A stretch of DNA of 64,000 nucleotides, from assembly GCA_964473175.1 (NCBI GenBank), contig CAYYNN010000001.1, forward strand, positions 408-64,407, in the 5' to 3' direction. The DNA comes from an uncultured Candidatus Saccharibacteria bacterium (GTDB lineage Bacteria; Patescibacteriota; Minisyncoccia; Phycocordibacterales; UBA9973). The notes beneath the pieces were generated by a model, which saw only the letters and a list, made by a program, of their open reading frames with translations, was not told where the DNA came from and did not search any database. Positions 17,853-42,925 of this stretch are shown piece by piece. The position numbers and the translations under genes were made by a program. The first letter of the stretch is position 1; the number at the start of each line of letters is the position of its first letter.

Positions 17853-18371
17853 TTAAAAACTAATTTTTTCTCGAATTTGCATAACAATTTTACCGTGTTC
17901 AAGGGCGTACACCTCTTTAATCTCATCGATTTGAAAGCGTTGTAATCCATCTTCTAATGCATCAACTAGTTTTTTTGGGTGAGTGGCAAGTAATCTTTTG
18001 CCGAGCTCTGGGTTTTGTTTGAATTTCTTGTATGTATACACACGGAGCATTCCTAATATGAAATGTTTCGTCCAATACGATGGTGTGGGCATACTTCTTT
18101 CCAAATCCTTGAGATCTGCAGGAATAGTTGTCACCGCAACTTTCTTTTTAATTGCAACATCTTTTGTTTTGTAACTCAAGATTGCATTTCGTACTGAAGG
18201 AAATAGTACGTCTCCTATCTGCAGTTGACAGGCATAATCATCACAGAGAAAGTGATGTCCACTTCCTGAAAATGAAAGAATGTGTGTTTCTGTTACATAT
18301 GGGTTATCCATGTTAAAAGTTTTCCTTTTTGTACCATTCTGATGCTCTAAAGTAAAGGTTTTATTTTCCAC
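17853..18371 (-). CDS. NADAR-domain (YbiA/DUF1768-like) protein
   Basis: Motif pattern FPSVRNAILSYK ... LLATHPKKLVDALEDG resembles NADAR-family N-glycosidases. Confidence 0.5.
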   Translation of the reverse strand: MENKTFTLEHQNGTKRKTFNMDNPYVTETHILSFSGSGHHFLCDDYACQLQIGDVLFPSVRNAILSYKTKDVAIKKKVAVTTIPADLKDLERSMPTPSYWTKHFILGMLRVYTYKKFKQNPELGKRLLATHPKKLVDALEDGLQRFQIDEIKEVYALEHGKIVMQIREKISF

Positions 18372-19186: not shown

Positions 19187-19218
19187 TACGCACTACAGAA
19201 ATGTGGTGCGTTTTTTTT
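19187..19218 (+). terminator. rho-independent terminator
   Basis: cgcacta-cagaaatg-tggtgcg followed by T8. Confidence 0.65.
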
Positions 19219-19700: not shown

Positions 19701-20345
19701 ATGTATGATATACATATGCGCCTTATGAATTCAAAACTTTCATTTAAGCTGTTATCAAAAAGAACAGCGCCATCTGACCTACCCAAGAAAACCGGTAGTA
19801 TTACAAAAAGCACTGCCTCAAAAAAAGGAACTGATAAACCGGTGGATAATAACCGACGCCTTTTTTTAAAAATCGCTGGTGTGGCAGGGCTTGGGGTAGC
19901 TGCATCTGCGCTTTTCCCTAAACAAGCAAACGCATATGTTGCCGGAAGCACACCGACGTCCAATGTTGTGGGTGTAAAGAATGCTGCTAATAGTCGTATC
20001 AACCCTGCAACTGAAGAAACACTTGCAACGATTATTGCTGGTCAAAATGTTAAAAAATTATCGATAAATCTTGCAGCTTCAGGTGTAGTGCGAACACCTG
20101 ATACCGGCAAGAAAATTCGAGTCTATGCATCCAGATTTTCTTTGACCTCAGACGCAACGTCTGTATCATTTCGATTTACTGCAGTAGGTACTGATCATGA
20201 AAAATACGTTTCGCCCAAGACAGGAGGTCTCTATGGGGCAAACAATCACCCCAACTATATCGAAGGGGGAGTTGATGATGTGTTATACTGTGTTATCAAT
20301 GGTACTACGACAGTTCAAATTAATATCGATTATTTAGAAATTTAA
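19701..20345 (+). CDS. Tat-signal (twin-arginine) secreted protein of unknown function
   Basis: NRRLFLKIAGVAGLGVAASALF is a canonical S/T-RRxFLK motif plus h-region, with an AxA site (ANAYV). It follows an unusually long Lys/Ser/Thr-rich n-region. The start may be the Met at 19716. Confidence 0.5.
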   Translation: MYDIHMRLMNSKLSFKLLSKRTAPSDLPKKTGSITKSTASKKGTDKPVDNNRRLFLKIAGVAGLGVAASALFPKQANAYVAGSTPTSNVVGVKNAANSRINPATEETLATIIAGQNVKKLSINLAASGVVRTPDTGKKIRVYASRFSLTSDATSVSFRFTAVGTDHEKYVSPKTGGLYGANNHPNYIEGGVDDVLYCVINGTTTVQINIDYLEI

Positions 20346-20354
20346 TTTTACATT

Positions 20355-22487
20355 ATGGCATTAAGAGCAGTTGAACATATCTTTACCGGAACTACTACGC
20401 CATATACGTCGTATGATTCTACAAAGACAAACCTCGGAGTACTGATTCAACAACGGACAGGTGCTAGTGCAACTGACAAATTTGCTGGACCAATGCCTAT
20501 TGCACTGGCTCGACCTATGGAAGCGAGTACTGCTATTACTGTCGCGTATCCCCATGTTATTGCATATAGCCCAGATGTTCATTGGGTGTTCCTGGCAGAA
20601 AACTCGACGGCTGCAGCAACTCGAAGAATAATTAAATACACGTATACAATATCTACAGGGGTGTTTAACTGGGATGGATTTATTACGCTCACTTTTCCTG
20701 CAGCGACAGTTGGTCACACAGTGCGAGGGTTCCGCATGACAAGAGATCTATACACTACTGGTGCTGCATCAGTAAGCGGAACTGCTGTAACCGGGTCAGG
20801 TACTGACTGGGCTACCTCTGGTCTTGCAGTGGGCTCGAGAATAGGTTTCGGTACTAGTGATCCTACTGCGGTAACGACATGGTATGAGATAAGTGCCGTC
20901 AATTCAAATACATCTATTACCCTTACTACTTCAGCAGGCACAGTGAGCAGTGGAGCATATGTTATTGAAGAGTTGCGAGCAATAGTTTCTACTTCTAACA
21001 CCACTACTACCAACGGAGGATTGTTTATTGCAAAAGGGCTTCGAGAAATTATTTTTTCTACTGCAGGTACAACAATCCCTGCAGCAACCACTGTTGATAA
21101 TATTCGTGCAGTATACTGGTGCGCTGATGCAAGTACTGTAACAAATACTATTGCTTGCGGAGTAGCTCTTGGTGCAAAAGATTCGTGGACACAACAATAT
21201 GCATATGTGATTGATGGTACTGCTGGTACCAACAGAGTGTACAAATATAACCTTCGCGCAGCACTTACTTCGATAGTTTCAGGAAAAACAACTTCCTCAT
21301 TTGTCCTTGTTACTGGTGCTCAAACACCTACAGGAACAGTCTCTCAGGCAAATAATGGGCGAGTGGGGACACTGGCGCACGGTCCAGGATCTGGAATAGA
21401 GTCTCTGTATTATGTAACAACAACTCGTGTGTATCGCGCATCGTTATCAAGTATCACATCGGGTAACATTGCATGGCAAAGTGATGCAATGCAAGAAATA
21501 CCACCTGGAGGTACATCAACATACCCTATAACTAGTGCATTAAACTCAGTCGAAATATCAGACGCTACTGACAGGCTGATAGTGATGAGTAGCGGTACTG
21601 CTGGTGCTCGTAGCTATGTAACACAATACAATACCGTAGGTAATCCATTCGACCACATTTTTCTTATCGATGACAAACAATATGATCAAAGTTCAACAGA
21701 TGCAGGTGCTGTGGCACATCCTGCTATATCCGCGCTACCTTTTTCTGTTTGGTCTGAGGCAGGCATATGTTACATGTGCAGAATTAGCACTGTAGCAACA
21801 ACCAATCAGCTCTACGCAGTACCACTTGGTGCTCATTGGACATACGCAGCATCAACTCCACAACAAAGACTCATTACACCTTCACTGAGTACAGTGAATG
21901 CTGTTACGTTTTCTCGAGTGTATATTAACTCATTAAACCAGCTTGGTTCTGGTACTTTGGGTCTTCCCCCCGAACCTTTCAGGCTTTTTTACCGAACATC
22001 TGGCATAGTCGACAATAGTGGAACATGGAACGCACTAGACGATGGAAGTGTTCTAAATGGAATAGCCCCTACTTCAGAAATACAGTTTATGTTTGAGTTC
22101 AAAATTTTGGGCGGGTCGTGTATTCCTTGTCGTATATATAGTCTGTCTCTAACATATCAAGACAATACTACTGATTCGCACTATCAACCGTCTGTAGGAA
22201 ATTCTTCAATCACCAGCAAGGTATTTTCATGGAGATTCTCGACAGCATTCGGAGGAACTGTTCCTACGTTGAAAATACAATTGTTCGACGCTGTTACTGG
22301 AGGGTCTTTGTTGAATGATACGACTACTGCGAGCGCTGCTGGAACATGGGAAAAATCTGTTGACGGTGGATCTATATGGTCTACATATAACACGTCTGAT
22401 AAAGCAAATGATCTGACCTATATTCGATATACACCAACAAGCCTCGCTGACAATATAAAGGTACGAGCATTGTTAACACAAAACTAA
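20355..22487 (+). CDS. large Ser/Thr/Gly-rich hypothetical protein (710 aa), no signal peptide
   Basis: Long ORF with strong coding character. Three Cys pairs (C-x13-C, CYMC, CIPC). No recognisable domain. Confidence 0.5.
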   Translation: MALRAVEHIFTGTTTPYTSYDSTKTNLGVLIQQRTGASATDKFAGPMPIALARPMEASTAITVAYPHVIAYSPDVHWVFLAENSTAAATRRIIKYTYTISTGVFNWDGFITLTFPAATVGHTVRGFRMTRDLYTTGAASVSGTAVTGSGTDWATSGLAVGSRIGFGTSDPTAVTTWYEISAVNSNTSITLTTSAGTVSSGAYVIEELRAIVSTSNTTTTNGGLFIAKGLREIIFSTAGTTIPAATTVDNIRAVYWCADASTVTNTIACGVALGAKDSWTQQYAYVIDGTAGTNRVYKYNLRAALTSIVSGKTTSSFVLVTGAQTPTGTVSQANNGRVGTLAHGPGSGIESLYYVTTTRVYRASLSSITSGNIAWQSDAMQEIPPGGTSTYPITSALNSVEISDATDRLIVMSSGTAGARSYVTQYNTVGNPFDHIFLIDDKQYDQSSTDAGAVAHPAISALPFSVWSEAGICYMCRISTVATTNQLYAVPLGAHWTYAASTPQQRLITPSLSTVNAVTFSRVYINSLNQLGSGTLGLPPEPFRLFYRTSGIVDNSGTWNALDDGSVLNGIAPTSEIQFMFEFKILGGSCIPCRIYSLSLTYQDNTTDSHYQPSVGNSSITSKVFSWRFSTAFGGTVPTLKIQLFDAVTGGSLLNDTTTASAAGTWEKSVDGGSIWSTYNTSDKANDLTYIRYTPTSLADNIKVRALLTQN

Positions 22488-22488
22488 T

Positions 22489-23040
22489 ATGATTCATATT
22501 GAAACAGAGCAGTATTTAGTAGACTCCACAAATCTCAAGGTCTCATCACCAACAGGTGATTACGAAGATCAGGATCTTATAGAGTGCGTGGATAGAGAAA
22601 ACTCAGTAACATCAGTGATTGCATATCAAGCACAGTACGTAAAATACGGTGGAATGGTGTACTCATTTGGAAGTTCTAAAGAATTGGGAGTTGAGATTTT
22701 GAAGGTTGATCCTCAGTCTACGCACGCGGCAGCTTCGTATGTCAGAATGATAGAAGAACTAGATACACAAATGAATCAAGGTGAGTTGGAGCCGAGTTCA
22801 CTAAAGAATGTTTTGTCAGATGAACAAGAAGTGATGGAAGAAAAAAGAGCTGAACCAGAAATTCAAGAAACTCCACAAATAAAAGAAGAGGTACTAGAGG
22901 ACACACCCGTAGAAGAAGTTGTTGTGCCTGAGATTATTCCGTCAGATACACTACTAGAAAATCCTGAGCCGGTACTCACTACAGAAGAAACCCTTTCAGT
23001 AGTAACAAATAAAAAGAGGAGACCCAGGAGATTAGGATAA
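22489..23040 (+). CDS. hypothetical acidic protein (183 aa, Glu/Pro-rich C-terminal tail ending KKRRPRRLG)
   Basis: ORF immediately after the 710-aa gene (1-nt gap). Confidence 0.45.
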   Translation: MIHIETEQYLVDSTNLKVSSPTGDYEDQDLIECVDRENSVTSVIAYQAQYVKYGGMVYSFGSSKELGVEILKVDPQSTHAAASYVRMIEELDTQMNQGELEPSSLKNVLSDEQEVMEEKRAEPEIQETPQIKEEVLEDTPVEEVVVPEIIPSDTLLENPEPVLTTEETLSVVTNKKRRPRRLG

Positions 23041-23043
23041 AAT

Positions 23044-23220
23044 ATGGCACTGACTGATATCAATTTTCAAGAAGGGGAAGGGCAGGATTTCATTACTGAA
23101 TTCCCGTCTGTTGGGTATGTTGGTGCAATGAGTGATATTGTTGTTGAATCAAATGGGTCTCAGTATCCAGTACTAGAGATTCCTGCAGGAGGAGGAAATA
23201 TTTTTATCATGTCAGAGTAA
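23044..23220 (+). CDS. small hypothetical protein (58 aa)
   Basis: ORF between the acidic protein and tatC. Not in the ORF track because it is under 60 aa. Confidence 0.25.
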   Translation: MALTDINFQEGEGQDFITEFPSVGYVGAMSDIVVESNGSQYPVLEIPAGGGNIFIMSE

Positions 23221-23226
23221 TCGCAC

Positions 23227-23955
23227 ATGAACTCTTTTCAGAAAACGATCAAAAAATACGCCGCATATTTTGAAGAATTGCGTCGCAGGTTGGTATTTGT
23301 CGTCAAGGTATTTGCGGTAGTTTTTGTTCTTGCTTTTGTTGGTACTCGACCTATTATTAAATTACTGCTTTCCTACGTGAGTATAGAGGGAGTAACAGTG
23401 GTGACGACCTCACCATTTCAACTTGTTGAACTCGCGATGAGTATTGGTTTTTTTGTAGCGTGTGTGGTGGTAGTACCACTGTGTATTTATTATCTGTATG
23501 TTTTTTTGAAGCCAGCACTTCTTTTAAAGGAACGCAAACTTTTTCTATTGTCGCTTCCACTAGGACTAGTGCTGTTTGTGGTAGGGTTTATGTATAGTTC
23601 AGTTATGCTCTACAACGCCATCCGCATTATTGCGGTACTGAACGTGCACCTCGGCGTTGCCAATTATTGGGATATTAGTACCTTTATGTATCAAATTATC
23701 TTGACATCAACCTTGCTCGGACTGCTATTCTTATTTCCTGTCGTTATTACATTCCTTGTTCGACTTGGTGTTACAAGCGTCGCATTTTTGCGTTCGAAAA
23801 GACGACATGCCATTGTAATTATATTCATCATTGTTGCTTTACTTCCCCCAACTGATGGTCTATCATTAGTGTTAATGGCAGTACCGTTAGTGCTGATTTT
23901 TGAACTTACGGTTTTGTTCAATAGAAGAAAAGTAACATCGATAATAGTAACCTAA
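23227..23955 (+). CDS. tatC: Sec-independent protein translocase TatC
   Basis: Six-TM topology with the conserved TatC N-terminal motif (FEELRRRL.....F). Confidence 0.85.
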   Translation: MNSFQKTIKKYAAYFEELRRRLVFVVKVFAVVFVLAFVGTRPIIKLLLSYVSIEGVTVVTTSPFQLVELAMSIGFFVACVVVVPLCIYYLYVFLKPALLLKERKLFLLSLPLGLVLFVVGFMYSSVMLYNAIRIIAVLNVHLGVANYWDISTFMYQIILTSTLLGLLFLFPVVITFLVRLGVTSVAFLRSKRRHAIVIIFIIVALLPPTDGLSLVLMAVPLVLIFELTVLFNRRKVTSIIVT

Positions 23956-23970
23956 TAATAGTATCGCACC

Positions 23971-24123
23971 ATGTTTGGACTCGGAACAAAAGAAATCATC
24001 ATTATCGCAGTCGTCATTGTGTTGTTGTTTGGATCAAAAAAGATACCTGAATTAACAAAATCAATTGCTGATGCAGTCAAACATCTTCTCGGTGCATTCA
24101 AAGACGCAGACCCTAAAAAATAA
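23971..24123 (+). CDS. tatA: Tat translocase TatA/E family protein (50 aa); not in the ORF track
   Basis: MFGLGTKEIIIIAVVIVLLFGSKKIPEL: TM helix, then the FG hinge and an amphipathic helix. Confidence 0.85.
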   Translation: MFGLGTKEIIIIAVVIVLLFGSKKIPELTKSIADAVKHLLGAFKDADPKK

Positions 24124-24163
24124 AGGACGCTTCAGTATTTTTATTATTTAATATATTAATCCC

Positions 24164-24322
24164 ATGTTTGGACTCGGAACAAAAGAAATCATCATTATCG
24201 CAGTCATCGTAGTTCTTCTATTTGGATCTAAGAAAATTCCAGAACTCGCTAAAAATCTTGTCGAAGCGTTCAAAAACTTAACTGGTGCATTTAAGTCTTC
24301 AGAAAATAAAAAAAATAAGTAG
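24164..24322 (+). CDS. tatA: second TatA/E paralog (52 aa); not in the ORF track
   Basis: MFGLGTKEIIIIAVIVVLLFGSKKIPEL. The 5' ~45 nt are near-identical to the first tatA, while the C-terminus differs. Confidence 0.85.
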   Translation: MFGLGTKEIIIIAVIVVLLFGSKKIPELAKNLVEAFKNLTGAFKSSENKKNK

Positions 24323-24381
24323 TGATTCGATATCGAGCATTACTACCGTTCGTATCTTTTGATTCTTTTTAAATATTATTT

Positions 24382-26814
24382 GTGACAACTTCATCTCTGA
24401 AAAAAAATACACTCTTGTGCGTGCTCTACGCAGGTATAGTTTTTTCTGTTGGGTTTTTTGTGTACACCACTGCGTTCGCCATTGATGTACATATGCCGGG
24501 TGAATCCATAACAATCGGAGAGTTTATATATAACGACGATTACTCGCCAACCACTGACGATTGTACGATATCCATATATTCACCAGCAGGAGCAACGCTT
24601 GTCAACGAAGCAACAATGACGGACGATAGTACTGGCTGGCATTACTATCCATACACGACACCAGTCACCGAAGGAAGTTACCCTGCGTTTATTACTTGCG
24701 GGGCTACTTTGACTGGAGACTTAATGAAGCTCGACAAGTCGTTTGTGGTAAAGGTCTCTAGTCTCGATACTGATGCAATCGCATCAGCTGTTTGGGCAAG
24801 TCCCTCTCGCAGTCTGACTTCATTTGGTTCACTTGTTTCAGATATTTGGAGCAACAGCTCGCGAACACTTTCAGCGTTCGGCTCTCTGGCTGCGGATATT
24901 TGGGATAACTCATTTGCGGTCAACAGACAGTTGACGACAAAAGATATCGCGGGCGGCGGGTCACTTGCAACCGAAAGTTATATCGATGCATCTCAGGCTA
25001 CTATTGTGGGTGAAATCGAAACAAACCGTACACTCATCAATGCGCTCAATAACATTTCAGCTGCCGACGTGTGGGCGTATGGAACACGGTCTACTAATGC
25101 GGGTAGTGTGAGTATCGATAGTAACTCTATTGCTGCTGTGTGGCAATCTGCTGCTTCTGGTTTAAATACGACAGGAAGTATTGGGAAGCTCATCGTCGAC
25201 AACCTCGATGCACAAGTGTCCAGTCGAGGGACAAGTACACTCACTGCAGGAGATGTATGGGCATCAACAACACGCACACTTTCAACCACTGGAGTTGATG
25301 CACTTTCAAGTGGAGTATGGTCAGCAGCAAGTAGGACACTCTCAAACTATGGTAACGACATCACCGCAGCAGATGTCTGGAACACATTGTCCTCATCACT
25401 GACAACGGTTGGTTCTATTGGAGAGCAACTTGCAAACAATGTTGATATAAAAAATTCAGATATTTTGACGGAAGTACAAGCTAACGCAACACTCATCAAT
25501 GCGCTCAATAATATTTCAGCTGCCGACGTGTGGGCGTATGGAACACGATCGGTAACTACTGATGTCACCATTTCAAATGCTTCATTACAGGCGCTATGGA
25601 ACACTGCAACAGTTGACCTCGCTACTACCGGGTCTGTCGGTAAGCTTATCGTTGATAACCTCAATGCCCAAGTGTCCAGTCGAGGGACGAGTAATCTTAC
25701 CGCCGCTGATGTATGGGCATCGGCAACGCGTACATTGACTGATTATTCTGATTCGACCATAGCAGCTGCGGTGTGGGCAAATGCAACGCGCACACTTTCA
25801 AATTACGGTAACGATATCACCGCAGCAGATGTGTGGAACACGCTATCTTCATCACTGACAACGGTTGGTTCTATTGGAGAGCAACTTGTAACAAATATTG
25901 ACGCCACTATATCGTCAAGAGCTTCTATGAGTGTAGGGGATTCATGGTCTGTAAAAATGGGAAATGTTGATCGTGTACAAACAGGTCAAGTCTACCGTAC
26001 CAAAGTATTTGTGTTAAACAATAGCGCACCTTCTGCACCATATGCGACACCCACCGTAACGCTCTATGATCCACAGCGCAACATATCAGTATCGGCAGTG
26101 TCGATGTCACTCATTAGTACTGGTGTGTATGAATACACATATACAGTCTCACCAAGTGCTGCCCAGGGACTTTGGGAAACCATCGCATCTACAGAAGTTG
26201 AAAGTGGTAAAACTGTACAGACCAATGATTACTGGGAAGTAGCAGGTTCTCCAGCTCAGGTCCTTATAAACTCAGTGAGTGCGACAGACCCTTCTACAAT
26301 ATTGGGTAATGTCACTGTAACTAACGAAGGTCTTACTGGATATGAGTATGACTATGAATGGTGTGTTGTCAGTGATCAGTCTAATGTGTGTGGAGGCAAC
26401 GATGACCTGTTCTATGCGTCTGCTGCAAAATTTATCAATCCTGGTGAAACCTGGAACACAACACTCTCAGCGGCGGTTACCTCTGCTGGCACCTATTACT
26501 TCAAACTCGTCGTTCACTTTGGTACCGATAATTCATCCGCATCGCGCGTGTTTACTGTAATAGGATCAACTCCTCCTGGAGGCGGAGGCGGTGGAGGAGG
26601 TACACCTCCACCAAATCAAGATACCTGTAACGGTGCTGATTTTAACAAAAATAGCGTAGTAGATTCGACTGATTTCTCTATCATGCTGTATTTCTGGAAG
26701 ACAGCATTTCCTTTCAAGAATCCATGCGTAGATATCAACGGAGATAAGAATGTAAATTCAATAGATTTCTCTATCATGCTTTTCCAGTGGGGTAAAAGGC
26801 CGTTATCAACATGA
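24382..26814 (+). CDS. large secreted repeat protein (810 aa) with C-terminal type I dockerin module; GTG start
   Basis: Signal peptide. Short repeats (SRxLSxFGSLxxDIW). Two ~150-aa tandem repeats. A Gly8 linker. The C-terminus has duplicated Ca-binding dockerin segments (DFNKNSVVDSTDFSIML and DINGDKNVNSIDFSIML). Confidence 0.7.
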   Translation: MTTSSLKKNTLLCVLYAGIVFSVGFFVYTTAFAIDVHMPGESITIGEFIYNDDYSPTTDDCTISIYSPAGATLVNEATMTDDSTGWHYYPYTTPVTEGSYPAFITCGATLTGDLMKLDKSFVVKVSSLDTDAIASAVWASPSRSLTSFGSLVSDIWSNSSRTLSAFGSLAADIWDNSFAVNRQLTTKDIAGGGSLATESYIDASQATIVGEIETNRTLINALNNISAADVWAYGTRSTNAGSVSIDSNSIAAVWQSAASGLNTTGSIGKLIVDNLDAQVSSRGTSTLTAGDVWASTTRTLSTTGVDALSSGVWSAASRTLSNYGNDITAADVWNTLSSSLTTVGSIGEQLANNVDIKNSDILTEVQANATLINALNNISAADVWAYGTRSVTTDVTISNASLQALWNTATVDLATTGSVGKLIVDNLNAQVSSRGTSNLTAADVWASATRTLTDYSDSTIAAAVWANATRTLSNYGNDITAADVWNTLSSSLTTVGSIGEQLVTNIDATISSRASMSVGDSWSVKMGNVDRVQTGQVYRTKVFVLNNSAPSAPYATPTVTLYDPQRNISVSAVSMSLISTGVYEYTYTVSPSAAQGLWETIASTEVESGKTVQTNDYWEVAGSPAQVLINSVSATDPSTILGNVTVTNEGLTGYEYDYEWCVVSDQSNVCGGNDDLFYASAAKFINPGETWNTTLSAAVTSAGTYYFKLVVHFGTDNSSASRVFTVIGSTPPGGGGGGGGTPPPNQDTCNGADFNKNSVVDSTDFSIMLYFWKTAFPFKNPCVDINGDKNVNSIDFSIMLFQWGKRPLST
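25031..25890 (+). repeat. intragenic tandem duplication, period ~460 nt, two copies with near-identical ends and a diverged centre
   Basis: A ~55-nt run at 25031-25087 recurs at 25491-25547 with one C/T difference inside acactcatcaatgcgctcaataa[c/t]atttcagctgccgacgtgtgggcgtatggaacacg. A ~90-nt block at 25341-25430 recurs at 25799-25890 at about 90% identity. Confidence 0.8.
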
Positions 26815-27710
26815 GATATTTAATGACACATATGACCTCTACAAAATACATCACATTATTTTTTATACTTACATTTTTTCTCTGTATTCCAGCGCAGAGT
26901 ATGGCAGCAACTATTCGAGCATCGAGCTCTACGGCACTCTCAGCAGGAGATACTGCTATCATCTCGGTATTTCTTGATACTGAAGGTGAAACCATCAACT
27001 CTATTGATGGCGCGGTGTTGCTGACAGACACTCATGGCGGGAACTTCACTATCAAAGATATCAGCGTGAGTAACTCAGTCTTTACCTTGTGGCCACGTAA
27101 ACCTTCTCTAGGAGAAGGCCACCGCATATCATTGATTGGCGGTATTCCCGGAGGAATAACAGGGGACTCACTCTTGCTTTTTAAAGCTATTGTTACCATC
27201 AACGAAGCTGGTACCTTTTCTATACGACCAGACACACTCGTAGCGTATCTTAATGACGGGCTAGGTACTACGCGGACAATCACCAAAGACACAAGTACTA
27301 TCACCGTAGGTCAGCGACGAGCAGCAACAAAGGATAACTGGCAAGAAATCATTTCAAACGACAACGTAGCTCCAGAAACGTTTGGTATCACCTTGGTACA
27401 AGACACTAATCTTTATGAAGGCAAAAAATTTCTTTCTTTTGAAACAACTGATACTGCTTCAGGAATTAGTTATTACACCGTAAAAGAAGGAGCATACCCG
27501 AGTGTTCGTACAGGGAATAGTTATATACTTATCGATCAAAATATACCTGAGGATGTTGTGGTGACCGCATATGATAAGGCGGGTAATTTCCAGGTATCGG
27601 TTTTCAAAAATAAGACACCAATACAGTGGGGTACCGTAGGCGTAGCACTTCTTGGGATAAGCGGTATCTATATCATCTACAAGAGATCTTGTAAAAAAAC
27701 AAATGCATAA
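26811..27710 (+). CDS. membrane-anchored surface protein with N-terminal cohesin-like domain
   Basis: Signal peptide. Cohesin-like beta-sandwich pattern (TAIISVFLDTEGETINSIDGAVLL ... LLLFKAIVTINEAGTFSI). C-terminal TM plus KRSCKK anchor. Confidence 0.55.
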   Translation: MRYLMTHMTSTKYITLFFILTFFLCIPAQSMAATIRASSSTALSAGDTAIISVFLDTEGETINSIDGAVLLTDTHGGNFTIKDISVSNSVFTLWPRKPSLGEGHRISLIGGIPGGITGDSLLLFKAIVTINEAGTFSIRPDTLVAYLNDGLGTTRTITKDTSTITVGQRRAATKDNWQEIISNDNVAPETFGITLVQDTNLYEGKKFLSFETTDTASGISYYTVKEGAYPSVRTGNSYILIDQNIPEDVVVTAYDKAGNFQVSVFKNKTPIQWGTVGVALLGISGIYIIYKRSCKKTNA

Positions 27711-29439
27711 CAATCAGTTTTTATATAAAAGTTATAGGGCATGGATCGGAACGGTATTGGCTGTAGCATTGGTTTTTGTTCCTGTGAATGCAGATGCTGC
27801 AACGCTTGCATTATCTCCAGCATCCACAAAAGTATCTGTAGGCAATATTGTTTCTGTGACACTCTCGCTCAATACAGCAGGTGTTGCTATCAATAACGCT
27901 GAAAGCGTTGTGCAGTTTCCTTCAGATTTATTGGAAGTAGTTTCGTTAAGTAAGAACTCATCTATCTTTTCATTATGGGTCGAAGAACCAACTTTTTCCA
28001 ATACTGCTGGTACGGTATCACTCAACGGTGGTGTTGCGAATCCTGGTTTCAATGGGAGTAGTGGTACACTTGCAACGATTATTTTTAAGGCAAAAAAGTC
28101 TGGCACCGCAACAGTTGTTTTTGCGGATGGCGCAGTACGAGCAAATGATGGTCTTGGTACCAATGTGTTAACTTCAAAAAGTGGGAGCACTATAGAGATA
28201 GCTCCACCCAAAGAGATAATGCCGGTTATGCCTGCTGTTCCTACTACCTCAGCTATCATCACGGTGCCTGCTGCGACAACATTAACACCTACGATCACTT
28301 CTGATACTCACCCAGAACAACATGTATGGTATTCAAATAGTACTGCGACATTTAGTTGGAAAGTTCCAAAGGGAGTGACTGGGCTACTCGCAGAGCTCAA
28401 TAAGACCGATGGTTCAACACCCAAAATTTCATATGATAGATCGGTTACCCAAAAAACACTCACAGGGCTCTCTGATGGAACATATTATTTTCATGTGAGA
28501 TACAAAGTAGGAACAGCGCTAGGTCCTGTAAATACATATAGAATTAATGTCGATACAACAGCACCGCCTTCCTTTGTTCCTACGCTTCGAACTGATGCTA
28601 AGCAGCAATACCTGTCACTGAATGCAGAGGATGCACTCTCAGGTATTAGTAGGTACACACTACGGATTGATGATAAGTCAGATATCGCGATAGATGTCAG
28701 TACACTCATAAATGGAGAATACCACCTTCCTGTACTAGTAGACGGTACACACAACATTGTGGTGACCGCATATGATAATGCTGGTAATAGTACCTCAGAA
28801 CATGTTGCGTACATAAGCCCGTATATCTCGAGCCCGGTATTTGAGTCAAGTGCTGACAATATTCATAAGGGGGAGCAAGTCACCATATCGGGCACAAGTG
28901 AGTATCCTGGCGCACAAGTAGCGATAGTTCTTGAAGTAAATGGTATAGAGATTAAAACATATCTTGAAACAGTCTCTGCTGATGGAACTTTCAGTATCAC
29001 CACTGATGCTTTGCAGAAAGTAGGGACAGTTACCGTGACTGCAAAAAATGTATTTTCTGAAAGTGTATACAGTCCCTTTTCAGAAAAGCTACAGTTCATT
29101 GTTCGAGAAACTGATGTTGCAAGAATAAGTATTGCTATTGTGTGGGTTATTGGAGCTGCGATCTCCGTCTTTATATTACTACTTCTGTTATATATCGGAT
29201 GGCGTAAGTTCTTATTATTACGTGCAAAAACAAAGCACGGACTCGAGCAAGCAATAGCTGATGCACACACTGCTACTACAATGTTGAAAGCAGAACTTGT
29301 TGATCAGTTAATGACTCTTGAGAAAAAACGCGTTGATCGTAATCTCAACAATGAAGAAGAGCGGATCTTTAAGGAAATAGAAAAAAATATCGACGATATC
29401 GACAAGTTTATTGAAAAGAAACTCAAGAAGATGTTGTAG
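27703..29439 (+). CDS. membrane-anchored surface protein with N-terminal cohesin-like domain, Ig-like domains and cytoplasmic coiled-coil tail
   Basis: Signal peptide. Cohesin consensus features (VSVGNIVSVTLSLN ... FPSDLLEVVSL ... GTLATIIFKAKKSGTATVVF). FN3/Ig-like region. TM helix. Charged coiled-coil C-terminus. Confidence 0.6.
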   Translation: MHNNQFLYKSYRAWIGTVLAVALVFVPVNADAATLALSPASTKVSVGNIVSVTLSLNTAGVAINNAESVVQFPSDLLEVVSLSKNSSIFSLWVEEPTFSNTAGTVSLNGGVANPGFNGSSGTLATIIFKAKKSGTATVVFADGAVRANDGLGTNVLTSKSGSTIEIAPPKEIMPVMPAVPTTSAIITVPAATTLTPTITSDTHPEQHVWYSNSTATFSWKVPKGVTGLLAELNKTDGSTPKISYDRSVTQKTLTGLSDGTYYFHVRYKVGTALGPVNTYRINVDTTAPPSFVPTLRTDAKQQYLSLNAEDALSGISRYTLRIDDKSDIAIDVSTLINGEYHLPVLVDGTHNIVVTAYDNAGNSTSEHVAYISPYISSPVFESSADNIHKGEQVTISGTSEYPGAQVAIVLEVNGIEIKTYLETVSADGTFSITTDALQKVGTVTVTAKNVFSESVYSPFSEKLQFIVRETDVARISIAIVWVIGAAISVFILLLLLYIGWRKFLLLRAKTKHGLEQAIADAHTATTMLKAELVDQLMTLEKKRVDRNLNNEEERIFKEIEKNIDDIDKFIEKKLKKML

Positions 29440-29445
29440 TATATA

Positions 29446-29742
29446 CTACTTGGTTGTTGATTTATTTCTGAACCATTTTTGTGTATCAGGTTTCCTGTGC
29501 GGGCAACCAGGCCAGCAACATGGACGTTTTTTCCCATCTTGTAATTGTGCGCAAAGTCGCTTGATATGCTCAGCTCGCGTATCGTCTTTTTTGACAATAG
29601 TGACCCAGCAAATCCATTCGTTACGTGCAAGTGGTGTCAACGTATCCCACAACCTCAAAGTATCTTTGTTCGAAGTTAGTGCTATCCGTAAGTCGTTTGG
29701 GGTTCGATGTATAAAAGTAGTGTTAGTTGTCTTGATACGCAT
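29446..29742 (-). CDS. YdeI/OmpD-associated family protein (DUF1801-like)
   Basis: W..LTP..R.E.I.WV...KK..TR..R pattern (LRLWDTLTPLARNEWICWVTIVKKDDTRAEHIKRL). Start trimmed to the internal Met. Confidence 0.6.
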   Translation of the reverse strand: MRIKTTNTTFIHRTPNDLRIALTSNKDTLRLWDTLTPLARNEWICWVTIVKKDDTRAEHIKRLCAQLQDGKKRPCCWPGCPHRKPDTQKWFRNKSTTK

Positions 29743-39049: not shown

Positions 39050-42000
39050 ATGATGCGTACACTACACATCCGGCCTACTGCACGTATCAAAGCATTGGCA
39101 CAGGTATCTCGACTCATTGCAACAGCATTTCTCGCATTTTTAATTATCGGATTTACACAGACTGCTCATGCGGCGTTGACTGACAGTCTTGTCGGATTTT
39201 GGAACTTCAATGAAGAAAACGGTCTCCGAGCCGATACAGTAGGATCGAGCACGCTTACCGATATCAATGGGATGACTTCGACTGCGGGCAAAATGGACAA
39301 CGCAGCCGTACTCATCAGTCCAACATACCTCACCTCTCCTGATAGTGCGACACTCAGTACGGGTGATATTGACTTTACATTCGCGGGATGGATATACCTC
39401 AACTCAAAGACCCCGTTCCAAGGTATCGTCAGTAAATGGGATACGGCAACCACTCGAGAGTATTTAATAGCATATGACAACGCTGCGGACAGATTCATAT
39501 TTGATGTCAGCTCCAATGGGGTTGCACAGACTGTGATCAGCGGCACGAACTCTGGTGCGCTATCGACAGGGACTTATTATTTTGTGGTTGCATGGCATAA
39601 TTCTGTCAGCAACACTATCAATATTCAGGTCAATAACGGGACCGTAAATAGCACTGCTCATACTACAGGAGTCTATGATAGTCCTTCTGCGCTTGTCATC
39701 GGGCGATATCAGGGTGTTGGTTCATTCAACGGACGCATAGATGGATTGGGTATGTGGAAGCGAGTGTTGACTGCCCAAGAACGTACCGACCTCTACAACG
39801 CAGGTGCGGGACTGGATTACCCATTCATTACGACGACCCCAAGCGCCCCGACAGGGCTTACTGGTAAGTTTGTTTCATCTACGGATGCCAATCTCGCGTG
39901 GACCATTCCGTCATCGGGCAATTCCGTCATTACTGACTATGTGATCGAGTACAAACTCTCGAGTGATAGTACGTGGACGACCGCAAGTGATGGAGTCAGT
40001 GCTGTCCCGAGTGCAACTATTACGGGACTTACCAATGGCGTCAATTATGACTTCAGAGTATCGGGAGTTAATGCGATAGGTCAAGGTACTCCGAGCACCT
40101 CGACTATCATACGGAGTATTCTGCTCTACGATGAATTTGCTGGCACGACGATAGATACAACGAAATGGAACGAGATAGACTCTGAAGGCTCAGGAGGTAC
40201 AAGTGGCAAGGTGCAACAGAATGATACTCTCACCGTTGCAAACAGTAACGCATCGTCTGCTTGGGGACTCACTGCACTTGAATCTACTGCTATGTATTAT
40301 GCAGACGATTTGGAGATATCGGCAGTCATGACGCGCGGTTCAGACCAGCTCATCGTGTATGGAGATACGAGTTTCACCAGTCTCGGCACAAATGCGTACG
40401 TACTCGATCTCACCGCTACGAACGTCTTGGGGTTGGTATGGGGCAATGGCGCACTGCGCACCAGTGTTACCTGTGGCACGGTGACCAATGGTGCAACGTA
40501 CCGTATGAAGCTCACTGCTACGGGGTATCAAATATACAAAAACGACACCTTGGCGTGTACGGTGACCCCGAACGCAATTTATTTGGTTGATTACAAGCCG
40601 ATATCATTACAGTCCGCTACTACTGCAAGTACCTTTGACGATGTAACCGTTGTTGGTCCTGTACCCAATCCAGTAGCACCGGATGCCCCAATTATTGGTA
40701 CTGCAACTGCAGCGGACGGTGCAGCGATAGTTACCTTTTCTGCACCTGTTGATAATGGCAATTCTCCTATTACTTCATACACTGTTACGTCTACACCTGG
40801 CTCTGTGACTGCGACGGGGGCATCGTCACCTATTACCATAACGGGGCTCACCAATGGAGTAGAGTACACATTCACGGTGACAGCGACGAACATTGCGGGT
40901 ACGTCAGTAGCGTCGAGTGCGTCCAATGCAGTCACCCCAGTCGTTCCGCCAGCACCTGGACAAGTACTCGCGCTCACTGCTCAAGGTGTCAATCAACAAG
41001 CACTATTGAATTGGGATGCGTCTGTCACTGGAGGTGCAGCCAATGACTACATCGTTGAATATAAGCCAAGTGCGAGCGATACATGGCAAACCTTTGCTGA
41101 TGGTACCAATACACTCACAAAGGTCATAGTGGATGAACTTGAGAATGATCTCTCTTACGATTTCCGAGTGAGCGCAGTCAACAACGCAGGTACTGGTCAA
41201 GCGTCAGATACTGCGAGTGCTACTCCCGCTGCGATCGGAGCGCTCGCATTTGTATTCACTGGCGAGAGTAACTCTGGTGGTATCGGTCTCAACTCCGATG
41301 CGACTGCACCCGAACTCGCATCTCGTTCGTCTGTCCAGATCACCAACCTGACATCAGGAGCGTTTTTGTACGAAAATTTGGACATCGGTACCAACAACTT
41401 GCGCGATCATACTGGGCTCGAAGCGTATTATGCCAACTCACACGGCTTTGAATTGCAATTGGCAAATTCTACAGAAGCCAACGAATTCCCAGATCATTCG
41501 CAAGTCTATTTGACCAAGACTGGGCACGGTGGATCGGTTATCAGTCAGTGGAATGAGGGAGGCGCATACTGGACCAAGTTCTTGCAACGCACCACTGCCG
41601 CAAAGGCACAATTACCATCAGATCGACAGTGGGTAGTATGGCTGAGTCTCGGTATCAACGACGCAATTATTGCAACTCCTACATCTACCTGGAAGACCGC
41701 AATGGTCAGTCATATCAACAAGATCAAGGCGGACCTGCCCGGCACTATTATTATATTGACCCAGTTTCAATCAATGTCAGGAGGGTTGGGGTATCCCACG
41801 TTCAATGCCGTCATGGATGAGATCGCCGCAGAAGAAGCCAATGTCTATGTAGTGAGCTCAGCTGGTGCTGCGAGTCGTGACTCCAACCATTGGAGTTATA
41901 GCGGATTAAAGACCGTTGCATCACGCATGGTAGATATCACCAACAACACGCTCGGGCTAATCTATCCGGGTATGCCTACGAGTCTATCTGCAACTGCAGG

Positions 42001-42925
42001 TGTCGAAGAAGCAACACTCTCGTGGAATGCACCGATCGCTGATGGAGGTAATGCGATCAGTGATTACCGTATAGAGTACAAACTGAGCGCTGATGCTGGA
42101 TGGAACGTGTTTGCAGATGGGACTTCTACTGCGACATCCGCTACCGTCACTGGTCTCGATGGAGCCGCATACGATTTCCGAGTGAGTGCAGTCAGTAGCA
42201 GTGGTGTTGGTAATCCTTCCAACACTGCATCCGCGACACCGACCATTGCTCCTGATGTGACTGCACCACAGATATCTGCAGTTGACGCATCGATTTCTAA
42301 TACTTCAGCTATTATCACGTGGACTACTGACGAGCCGGCAGAATCTCTCGTAGAGTATGGCCTGACGACTTCGTATGGGCAGTCGAGTACAATCTCGAGT
42401 TCGCTTGTCACTTCTCATAGTGTGACACTGTCAGGATTATCTCCATCAACGCTTTATTATTATCGAGTGACGTCAGTTGATGATTCACTCAACTCTGCAA
42501 CGTCTACCATGGCGAGCTTCACAACCACTGCAACACCTTCGCCGACTCGTGTCACGACGACAGGGTACTATTCTCCAACAGTTGTATGTAAGCCTGGACA
42601 CCTCTTTAGTACGATCACAGGTCGTCCATGTACTGGCACTTCCATCCCTGTGTCTCCTATGCCGACGTCACCACGATACAACTTCAGCCGATCCCTCAGT
42701 ATAGGAATGACAGGTCCAGATGTTCGAGCATTGCAGATATTCCTCAACGCGCATGGCGCTCCAGTTGCTACTACCGGAGCAGGTTCACCGGGAGCCGAGA
42801 CCATGCTCTATGGATCTCTCACTCGTGCTGCAGTCGCAAAGTATCAAGCACTCAACAACATCAAACCCGCAGTTGGATTCTTTGGACCTATTACGAGGGC
42901 GTGGGTCAATACACACCAGCAATAG
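39050..42925 (+). CDS. giant secreted multidomain protein (1291 aa): LamG/ConA-like, multiple FN3, SGNH/DUF303-like esterase, C-terminal PG_binding_1
   Basis: Signal peptide. LamG-like N-terminus. At least four FN3 repeats (DYVIEYK...DFRVSAVN recurring). GESNSGG and GINDA SGNH-like motifs. C-terminal peptidoglycan-binding repeat (MTGPDVRALQIFLN ... TRAAVAKYQ). Confidence 0.7.
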   Translation: MMRTLHIRPTARIKALAQVSRLIATAFLAFLIIGFTQTAHAALTDSLVGFWNFNEENGLRADTVGSSTLTDINGMTSTAGKMDNAAVLISPTYLTSPDSATLSTGDIDFTFAGWIYLNSKTPFQGIVSKWDTATTREYLIAYDNAADRFIFDVSSNGVAQTVISGTNSGALSTGTYYFVVAWHNSVSNTINIQVNNGTVNSTAHTTGVYDSPSALVIGRYQGVGSFNGRIDGLGMWKRVLTAQERTDLYNAGAGLDYPFITTTPSAPTGLTGKFVSSTDANLAWTIPSSGNSVITDYVIEYKLSSDSTWTTASDGVSAVPSATITGLTNGVNYDFRVSGVNAIGQGTPSTSTIIRSILLYDEFAGTTIDTTKWNEIDSEGSGGTSGKVQQNDTLTVANSNASSAWGLTALESTAMYYADDLEISAVMTRGSDQLIVYGDTSFTSLGTNAYVLDLTATNVLGLVWGNGALRTSVTCGTVTNGATYRMKLTATGYQIYKNDTLACTVTPNAIYLVDYKPISLQSATTASTFDDVTVVGPVPNPVAPDAPIIGTATAADGAAIVTFSAPVDNGNSPITSYTVTSTPGSVTATGASSPITITGLTNGVEYTFTVTATNIAGTSVASSASNAVTPVVPPAPGQVLALTAQGVNQQALLNWDASVTGGAANDYIVEYKPSASDTWQTFADGTNTLTKVIVDELENDLSYDFRVSAVNNAGTGQASDTASATPAAIGALAFVFTGESNSGGIGLNSDATAPELASRSSVQITNLTSGAFLYENLDIGTNNLRDHTGLEAYYANSHGFELQLANSTEANEFPDHSQVYLTKTGHGGSVISQWNEGGAYWTKFLQRTTAAKAQLPSDRQWVVWLSLGINDAIIATPTSTWKTAMVSHINKIKADLPGTIIILTQFQSMSGGLGYPTFNAVMDEIAAEEANVYVVSSAGAASRDSNHWSYSGLKTVASRMVDITNNTLGLIYPGMPTSLSATAGVEEATLSWNAPIADGGNAISDYRIEYKLSADAGWNVFADGTSTATSATVTGLDGAAYDFRVSAVSSSGVGNPSNTASATPTIAPDVTAPQISAVDASISNTSAIITWTTDEPAESLVEYGLTTSYGQSSTISSSLVTSHSVTLSGLSPSTLYYYRVTSVDDSLNSATSTMASFTTTATPSPTRVTTTGYYSPTVVCKPGHLFSTITGRPCTGTSIPVSPMPTSPRYNFSRSLSIGMTGPDVRALQIFLNAHGAPVATTGAGSPGAETMLYGSLTRAAVAKYQALNNIKPAVGFFGPITRAWVNTHQQ

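Follow-up and report, generated by a model that had tools for sequence, protein, structure and literature searches.

A phage-related gene cassette linked to tatC and tatA in Patescibacteria as a candidate cargo of the twin-arginine translocase

Introduction

Which proteins are carried by the pathway of twin-arginine translocation (Tat) in Patescibacteria, whose minimal genomes encode few cofactor enzymes of the kind usually justifying this exporter? The question is raised by a 64,000-nt stretch of DNA (contig CAYYNN010000001.1, positions 408 to 64,407, assembly GCA_964473175.1), hereafter called the window, in which the genes of four proteins designated T214, B710, A183 and S58 lie directly 5' of tatC and two copies of tatA. 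The initial annotation of this stretch took them for a twin-arginine protein and signal-less partners co-localised with their translocase. Hitchhiker complexes of the Tat pathway are exemplified by the small and large subunits of [NiFe] hydrogenase and by DmsAB. TatA and TatC themselves were reported for Paceibacteria in a study of freshwater bacteria of the candidate phyla radiation (CPR), whose passages on these proteins name no substrates (PMC9166423). Full-text literature searches returned no published description of the gene cluster considered here. We addressed if the association of the cassette with tat genes is kept in related genomes, to which proteins its products are akin and how they might leave the cell, and came to a model in which a cassette shared with phages may be exported folded through TatAC, with B710 riding on T214.

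Operon organization and linkage to tat genes

Ten genes, all on the plus strand, occupy positions 19701-29439 of the window with intergenic gaps of at most 59 nt and two overlapping gene pairs, and constitute a single operon of a Patescibacteria (Paceibacteria-type) chromosome. The cassette T214-B710-A183-S58, with spacing of 1-9 nt between its genes, opens this unit and is followed by tatC-tatA-tatA and by the genes of three further proteins, S810, S299 and S578. All seven open reading frames (ORFs) listed by the initial annotation, those of 214, 710, 183 and 58 aa together with tatC-tatA-tatA, were found at the coordinates it had given; its group of four genes plus tat stands, but not as the complete unit, since the operon reaches 29439. 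Terminator-like hairpins, detected by consensus scan only, bracket the ten genes at 19188-19211 on the 5' side and, on the plus strand, at 29562-29584 behind the last gene.

The identity of the translocase genes is given by family models. The product of tatC (23227-23955, plus strand) matches PF00902 with an E-value of 3e-36 over 206 of the 208 model positions, and its score with TIGR00945 (111.7 bits) is under the equivalog cut-off of 132.7. Both tatA genes on the same strand match PF02416, copy 1 (23971-24123) at 7.7e-11 and copy 2 (24164-24322) at 1.8e-12, and represent a tandem duplication (23969-24313; 152 nt, 72% nucleotide identity, repeat family D1). Two tatA copies are also present in many related loci.

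The genomic neighbourhood was surveyed with the ten window proteins as queries in 85 non-viral loci, that is, 84 fetched ones and the window. TatC was detected in 73 of them, which is every Patescibacteria locus with enough flanking sequence (73 of 73); the remaining 12 comprise eight contigs ending at B710 or no more than ~1 kb past it and four loci from outside Patescibacteria. Relative to B710, TatC is encoded downstream on the same strand in 63 cases, upstream on the same strand in six, upstream and divergently in three and otherwise in one, at a median distance of 832 nt, and the genes beyond the cluster vary from locus to locus. Synteny with tatC in relatives, proposed beforehand as a check, is therefore kept across rearrangements, and the functional tie of the cassette to TatAC is well supported. 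Homologues bearing organism names come from Pacebacteria, Parcubacteria and Magasanikbacteria. The public records of many contigs with a cluster of the Patescibacteria type bear the title "uncultured Gammaproteobacteria" or else "uncultured Candidatus Saccharibacteria" (e.g., L014, L019, L022, L027, L031 and L033), and the metagenome-assembled genomes (MAGs) so titled look mislabelled.

The Tat signal of T214

T214 (19701-20345, plus strand) is delimited as a 214-aa ORF, with a probable true start at Met6 (19716), on which its homologues and the database gene call P0121 agree, both pointing to a protein of 209 aa. The predicted Tat signal peptide (19701-19934, plus strand), read from the sequence, combines the motif RRLFLK (residues 52-57, 19854-19871), a weakly hydrophobic h-region (IAGVAGLGVAASALF), PKQ as the basic c-region and the site ANA (19926-19934) standing before Y, with predicted cleavage after A78. 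The NCBIfam Tat-signal model TIGR01409 scores 19.7 bits on T214, above its cut-off of 16.7, and the canonical RRLFLK motif, the h-region, the AxA site and the long Lys/Ser/Thr-rich n-region described in the initial annotation are all present in the sequence. Among the non-nested ORFs of the window, all of which were scanned for a Tat motif together with an h-region, T214 alone fits this pattern. The mature part consists of a segment with NPATEE and a C-terminal beta domain of ~100 aa.

Database searches yielded 654 homologues of T214 with the mature part ~80% identical. The motif was surveyed in 64 distinct homologues from the fetched loci, 63 of them from Patescibacteria and one from phage L097, using as a strict pattern [KR]R-x-F-x-K followed by an h-region and then A-x-A. 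A Tat signal is present in 62 of the 63 Patescibacteria proteins, 55 of which fit the strict pattern (KR in 43, RR in 12), and seven were recognised by eye, being of KR type but having V/T/S-x-A sites or leucine where the pattern has F. The protein left, from L017, was not judged because its printed N-terminus stops short of the expected motif position. The phage homologue lacks the signal. We consider it very likely that T214 is a Tat-targeted protein. Its N-terminus (19716-19760, residues 6-20) is itself conserved in many homologues as M-x-x-x-x-S-K-Y/H-S-F-K/R-L/F-x-S, ~35-40 residues ahead of the twin-arginine motif, and such an SKxSFKL element inside a Tat n-region is unusual.

When 1.84 billion representative proteins were searched with a profile, 309 relatives of T214 came up, including a second family (P0336, P0346, P0347, P0355, P0406 and P0413) that has a T214-like SKxSFKL motif, a Tat signal and repeated RINPATE(D/E) segments joined to unrelated C-terminal domains. 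Its C-termini share a conserved "LRRxVKLMESQAxVD" stretch, and its long forms contain repeated units of ~70 aa. Counted in clusters, this family accounts for a large part of the 150 T214-relative matches listed, and it was not found in the fetched cassette loci.

B710 and its relatives in phages

B710 (20355-22487, plus strand; 710 aa, 77 kDa) is the largest product of the cassette and belongs to a family with more than 1,800 homologues, the best 120 of which are 51-75% identical. Neither it nor A183 or S58 has an N-terminal hydrophobic segment (the maximal Kyte-Doolittle mean over 15 residues is at most 1.27 compared to 2.0 in the h-region of T214), and the N-terminus of B710 aligns with the N-termini of its homologues from viral contigs and prophages; the absence of signals from the 710-, 183- and 58-aa proteins, claimed from the start, is thus upheld by hydropathy. 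No Pfam domain and no name beyond "hypothetical protein" is attached to any homologue of B710 or T214. B710 has no match in Pfam, NCBIfam or the sequences of the PDB, including the sialidase, BNR and Peptidase_S74 chaperone domains, and searches with all four cassette proteins that also covered PHROGs and PADLOC returned nothing but the Tat signal and one short segment resembling tail fibres, in agreement with the earlier impression that the three larger proteins fit no recognisable family. The three Cys pairs noted at the outset (256/268, 472/475 and 589/592) do exist in the window protein; their conservation does not, as only C589 is kept in at least 90% of homologues, so that the pairs are no feature of the family and conserved disulphides were rejected.

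The AlphaFold2 (AF2) model of B710, built on 40 homologues, is all-beta with a predicted local distance difference test (pLDDT) score of 85.7 and a predicted template modelling (pTM) score of 0.78, and its strand pattern can be read as some six blades of a propeller at residues ~60-510, with two beta-sandwich domains at the C-terminus. Comparison with PDB structures by Foldseek gave as best matches the endosialidase tailspikes of phages (4hiz, 1v0e and 3gvk; E ~5e-6) followed by generic propellers, and comparison with viral models gave P22 gp10-like and other proteins of uncultured phages (E ~1e-10). With TM-scores of only 0.2-0.3 and sequence identity of ~10%, the likeness of the modelled protein to endosialidases and gp10 is one of fold type and not of family membership. 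The tail-fibre-like segment corresponds to a small beta-rich domain (20751-20969, plus strand; residues ~133-205, "YTTGxxSVSGTAVTGSGTxW") resembling the N-termini of phage tail fibres; it matches the PHROG tail-fibre family phrog_1591 at 1.6e-6, and the homologue from a Rufibacter prophage matches another such family, phrog_1980, at 4e-9. Patescibacteria variants of B710 having 800 and 886 aa (P0045 and P0090) contain two to three copies of this domain. In several Patescibacteria loci (L056, L060, L061, L065, L076, L079 and others) three tandem B710 paralogues of ~880, ~810 and ~945 aa follow a single T214, and the viral contigs L117 and L119 carry two or three tandem copies. In L019 a separate 138-aa beta-rich ORF directly precedes B710.

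The wider distribution of B710 leads to phages. In IMG/VR, full-length homologues (40-59% identity) were found on no fewer than 186 viral contigs, the GC content of which spans 0.29-0.72. Among 80 viral B710 loci inspected, none contains tatC, tatA, S810, S299 or S578. The four non-Patescibacteria loci, which likewise have B710 and no tat, belong to Rufibacter ruber CCM 8646, a Roseomonas MAG, a "Dependentiae" MAG and a Leptospiraceae MAG. In the first of them the homologue, 42% identical along its entire length, resides in a prophage; one flank holds the genes of terminase, portal and a MuF-like protein, and the opposite flank those of a baseplate-wedge-like protein, protease and major head protein. 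In the other three loci the neighbours look phage-like by eye. On the phage side, all members of the family were found in prophages or in viral contigs of uncultivated origin, and tblastn with B710 and T214 against 50,697 GenBank phage records gave no match.

The gene order, as assigned by PHROG search, is terminase, portal, a 351-aa protein, B710, 63-aa ORF, 61-aa ORF, protease and major head in L097; major head, 60-aa ORF, B710 and tail tubular proteins A and B in L164; and major head, 144-aa ORF, a 219-aa protein, B710 and a small ORF in L165. Homology to the last ~100 residues of T214 is shown by the C-terminus of the 351-aa protein of L097 (2e-16) and by that of the 219-aa protein of L165 (1.7e-32); both phage proteins are signal-less and encoded directly upstream of B710. 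L097 is one phage with counterparts of all four cassette genes in the same order as in the window, and the Patescibacteria version differs from it by the Tat signal on the first protein, the acidic tail on A183 and the linkage with tat and cohesin/dockerin genes. Further relatives of T214 form a class of signal-less proteins of 300-620 aa with long repeat-rich N-terminal regions and the T214 domain at the end, and members of it are encoded after the portal gene in phage loci L166 and L167. A relaxed hidden Markov model (HMM) search for the T214 domain in other B710-bearing viral loci gave nothing credible beyond L097, L165 having been found by a separate scan. In L166 (8129-9357) and L168 (5848-7718), genes of other unclassified beta-rich proteins are located next to a T214-like protein without B710, which implies that the T214-type domain may pair with different partners.

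All this makes us highly confident that the cassette is akin to genes of phage virion modules. The initial annotation had named membership of the 710-aa protein in a phage structural family unrelated to secretion as an argument against an export module. Formally, the family found is of this type, being that of a virion module; it reframes the idea of export rather than refutes it, because proteins of phage virions, folded in the cytoplasm and active beyond the cell, are of a kind that Tat is able to carry. In a neighbour-joining tree of 176 B710 sequences, a quick distance tree and not a tested phylogeny, Tat-linked proteins fall into several groups interleaved with viral ones, which suggests repeated exchange of B710 between phages and cells. 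Single capture from a phage is not supported by this interleaving, and the tree is too crude for the direction or number of transfers. Since the hosts of these phages, judged by GC content, are broad, a phage origin offers the simpler reading and the cassette is probably phage-derived. In phages, the B710 gene usually occupies the head module, either between portal and protease/capsid genes or just after the capsid gene, and this position hints that B710 may be a head-associated accessory protein there.

Small cassette proteins and cohesin/dockerin genes

Small genes beside fibre or spike genes of phages often code for assembly factors, and the last two members of the cassette may be considered in this respect. 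A183 (22489-23040, plus strand; 183 aa, isoelectric point 4.3) is composed of a conserved N-terminal "An" domain of ~55 aa, an acidic low-complexity linker and a basic tail, here KKRRPRRLG. Its homologues likewise have the An domain and a strongly acidic linker, and ~60% of them end in a short, very basic tail. S58 ("Sm"; 23044-23220, plus strand) is a small acidic protein kept after A183 in Patescibacteria loci. With iterated HMMs, homologues of the An domain were detected next to B710 in 35 viral loci, either as ORFs of ~60 aa or as segments of longer ORFs, and those of Sm directly downstream of B710 in 18. A183 and S58 could be co-passengers or, equally, cytoplasmic assembly factors.

The three genes behind tatA encode proteins with hydrophobic N-termini. 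S810 (24382-26814, plus strand; repeat families D2-D5) has a tandem repeat of 152 aa in its interior, an MG2-like domain (1e-6, under the cut-off) and a C-terminal dockerin (residues 753-799), which scores marginally above the PF00404 cut-off (23.1 vs 22.9 bits) and has the usual internal duplication visible in the DNA (repeat family D5). The tandem repeat (25002-25901) has a unit of ~456 nt, that is 152 aa, rich in "ADVW..G.R" motifs, and the length of S810 varies between genomes from ~650 to ~2,300 aa. S578 (27703-29439, plus strand) combines a cohesin (residues 37-150; PF00963 at 3.6e-7, 30.9 bits vs the cut-off of 24.1, with 7 of 22 family members matching), Ig/FN3-like domains (Big_13) and, starting near residue 477, a transmembrane helix at the C-terminus. 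S299 (26811-27710, plus strand) ends with a hydrophobic anchor according to its hydropathy and shares a 32-nt segment with S578 (repeat family D7); it has no match in Pfam, and its N-terminal domain looks cohesin-like by eye only. S810, S299 and S578 accompany the cluster in 72, 52 and 51 of the 85 non-viral loci, respectively, sometimes inverted upstream. A cohesin-dockerin pair co-encoded with the cassette is well supported, and pairing of S810 with S578 may be supposed from their co-occurrence.

Two more genes of the window deserve mention. Just upstream of the operon, on the minus strand, lies an ORF with a NADAR domain (17853-18371; PF08719 at 2.6e-8, 34.8 bits vs the cut-off of 35.1; phrog_1017). 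The ORF at 39050-42925 lies where the GC content of the window is highest (0.48-0.50 vs ~0.41 elsewhere), and its 1,291-aa product contains FN3 domains (five), a LamG-like domain, a SASA domain of sialate O-acetylesterase type and a C-terminal peptidoglycan-binding domain.

Export model and its alternatives

In the model proposed here, T214 and B710 would fold in the cytoplasm, possibly aided by A183 and S58 as candidate assembly factors of phage type; TatC would recognise T214 by its [KR]R-x-F-L-K signal; TatAC would move the folded T214, taking the signal-less 77-kDa B710 along as a hitchhiker; and the signal would then be cut off after ANA. At the surface, the complex might act together with S810, a dockerin protein that would be retained by S578, a cohesin protein anchored in the membrane, and perhaps by S299. 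The likely job of the complex would be to bind or cut glycans on another cell, as expected of an episymbiont. In the evolution of the Patescibacteria form, a twin-arginine signal would have taken the place of the long phage N-terminus, and the cassette would have become lastingly linked to tatC and tatA. The reasoning behind this scheme is that the C-terminal domain of T214 presumably binds B710, because the two are adjacent in phages and cells; that B710, if so bound, would leave the cell as a hitchhiker; and that phage virion proteins are by their evolution adapted to cytoplasmic folding, which means that a cell wanting them outside needs an exporter of folded proteins. Within the model we infer the T214-B710 complex and its co-export, the cleavage of the signal, the surface role and the direction of phage-cell transfer. 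Taken as a whole, export of the phage-shared cassette in folded form through TatAC, with B710 carried by T214, appears to us evenly poised between right and wrong.

Several observations weigh against this model in one or another of its parts. As to the signal, the Pfam model TAT_signal (PF10518) scores 14.3 on T214, below its cut-off of 22.7, the n-region is of unusual length (46-51 residues, K/S/T-rich), and KR, uncommon among known Tat signals, is commoner than RR among T214 homologues. As to binding of T214 to B710, the AF2 model of the T214 monomer is unreliable (pLDDT 49), and in the divergent loci L019 (10297-11127, minus strand) and L022 (4074-4877, plus strand) the Tat-motif protein adjacent to B710 has a different C-terminal domain, with several hydrophobic, apparently membrane-spanning segments ahead of KR-x-F-x-K. 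A passenger of 77 kDa, possibly oligomeric, is also large for Tat. The existence of the second Tat-signal family means that Tat in such organisms is not dedicated to the cassette alone, and the strong conservation of B710 across phages of very different hosts is a poor fit with host-specific receptor binding.

In a different explanation, only T214 leaves the cell, as a small knob-like protein that uses Tat because it has to fold, and perhaps to oligomerise, beforehand. B710, A183 and S58 would remain cytoplasmic, for instance as its assembly factors or in some unrelated role inside the cell, the operon being an ancestral cassette inherited as a block. T214 is indeed the only one with a signal, the second Tat-signal family has no visible B710 partner in the fetched loci, and the long repeats of the signal-less T214-domain proteins show by eye a coiled-coil-like periodicity, which suggests fibre-like oligomers that would need Tat themselves. 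However, a purely cytoplasmic role is hard to picture for B710 as the largest and most conserved protein of the cassette with fold matches at the virion surface; the T214 domain adjoins B710 in L097 and L165, suggesting joint action, and B710 is doubled or tripled beside a single T214 in several loci. On balance, we regard export of T214 by itself as rather unlikely. The interleaving of Tat-linked B710, which is not monophyletic, with viral clades and the tandem paralogues found in cells and phages alike might also be expected of a surface-exposed phage mimic, for example a decoy or blocker akin to virion proteins of the phages infecting these bacteria and involved in conflict with phages, for which exchange with them would be an arms race and not a matter of host attachment. 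The tree behind this argument is nevertheless a quick distance tree, no PADLOC defence model matched, and the cassette is stable and highly conserved, with 55-75% identity among close homologues, unlike typical defence islands; such a role therefore appears improbable.

The presence of B710 and its partners in phage genomes, together with a tRNA-Glu gene ~400 nt downstream of the operon, may finally be taken as traces of a prophage remnant or mobile island that came to rest beside tat by chance, so that the adjacency has no meaning. This is contradicted by the synteny described above, with TatC linked in all 73 informative Patescibacteria loci in four arrangements and with differing flanks, and by the conserved Tat signal of T214, which its phage homologues lack. 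In the window itself, no integrase, terminase, portal or capsid gene is present among the 18 neighbouring or larger ORFs scanned, which are housekeeping or unidentified; repeat analysis revealed no att-like repeat; the GC content at the cassette is unremarkable relative to the window; and the operon is flanked by ordinary cellular genes, namely rsmH, two genes of penicillin-binding proteins, and those of a P-type ATPase, GatB and GAPDH. Prophage or island identity of the locus was rejected on the grounds of absent hallmark genes, absent att repeats and housekeeping flanks, and meaningless adjacency is highly improbable. Export of the cassette with B710 riding on T214 may be extended to a fuller picture, which we offer tentatively and with more doubt than confidence: a captured virion-surface cassette made up of a knob-like adaptor, a propeller and two small partners, exported in the folded state by a dedicated TatAC with the propeller protein as a non-redox hitchhiker that then forms with cohesin and dockerin an organelle of the episymbiont for attachment or glycan processing, the genes being still exchanged with phages.

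Relation to known systems and significance

Like the known Tat hitchhikers, the cassette unites in one operon a twin-arginine subunit and larger signal-less partners following it, with export of a prefolded complex being proposed here. PaoABC was described as a natural three-component representative of such systems (PMC4273604). The differences are that the hitchhikers described so far are redox enzymes with cofactors, whereas no cofactor or redox domain was detected in the cassette proteins, which are related to those of virion modules; that the translocase genes belong here to the same operon; and that the signal is mostly of KR type with a very long n-region. The best fold matches of B710, that is, endosialidase tailspikes of K1F and phi92 (1v0e and 4hiz) and P22 gp10-like tail proteins of podoviruses, are likewise encoded in structural modules of phages, but the B710 gene usually lies in the head module and not among tail-spike genes. 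With cohesin-dockerin systems of the cellulosome type the operon has in common the cohesin and C-terminal membrane anchor of S578 and the C-terminal dockerin of S810; in contrast to them, no glycoside hydrolase or carbohydrate-binding module was found, and S299 has no detectable cohesin match. Tailocins, contractile injection systems and gene transfer agents are also virion genes of phages kept by cells under purifying selection to serve the cell, yet here only an accessory virion cassette is retained, without tube, sheath, baseplate or capsid, and Tat rather than lysis is the proposed way out. We would not call the cluster a categorically new mechanism; it is a variation on export of Tat hitchhiker type and on domestication of phage genes.

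The operon provides a concrete Tat cargo and may explain the retention of Tat in Patescibacteria. To our knowledge, all known cases of Tat hitchhiking concern redox enzymes, and the export model, if true, would widen this range to a large protein related to virion modules. B710 represents a very large and highly conserved unnamed family with more than 1,800 cellular and phage members, 40-75% identical over phage contigs whose GC content is 29-72%, which joins virion modules of phages with a proposed surface apparatus of episymbionts, both of which must engage the surfaces of other cells. The role of B710 in phages can be studied in the prophage of the cultivated Rufibacter ruber CCM 8646, and for Paceibacteria the cassette is a testable candidate for host attachment.

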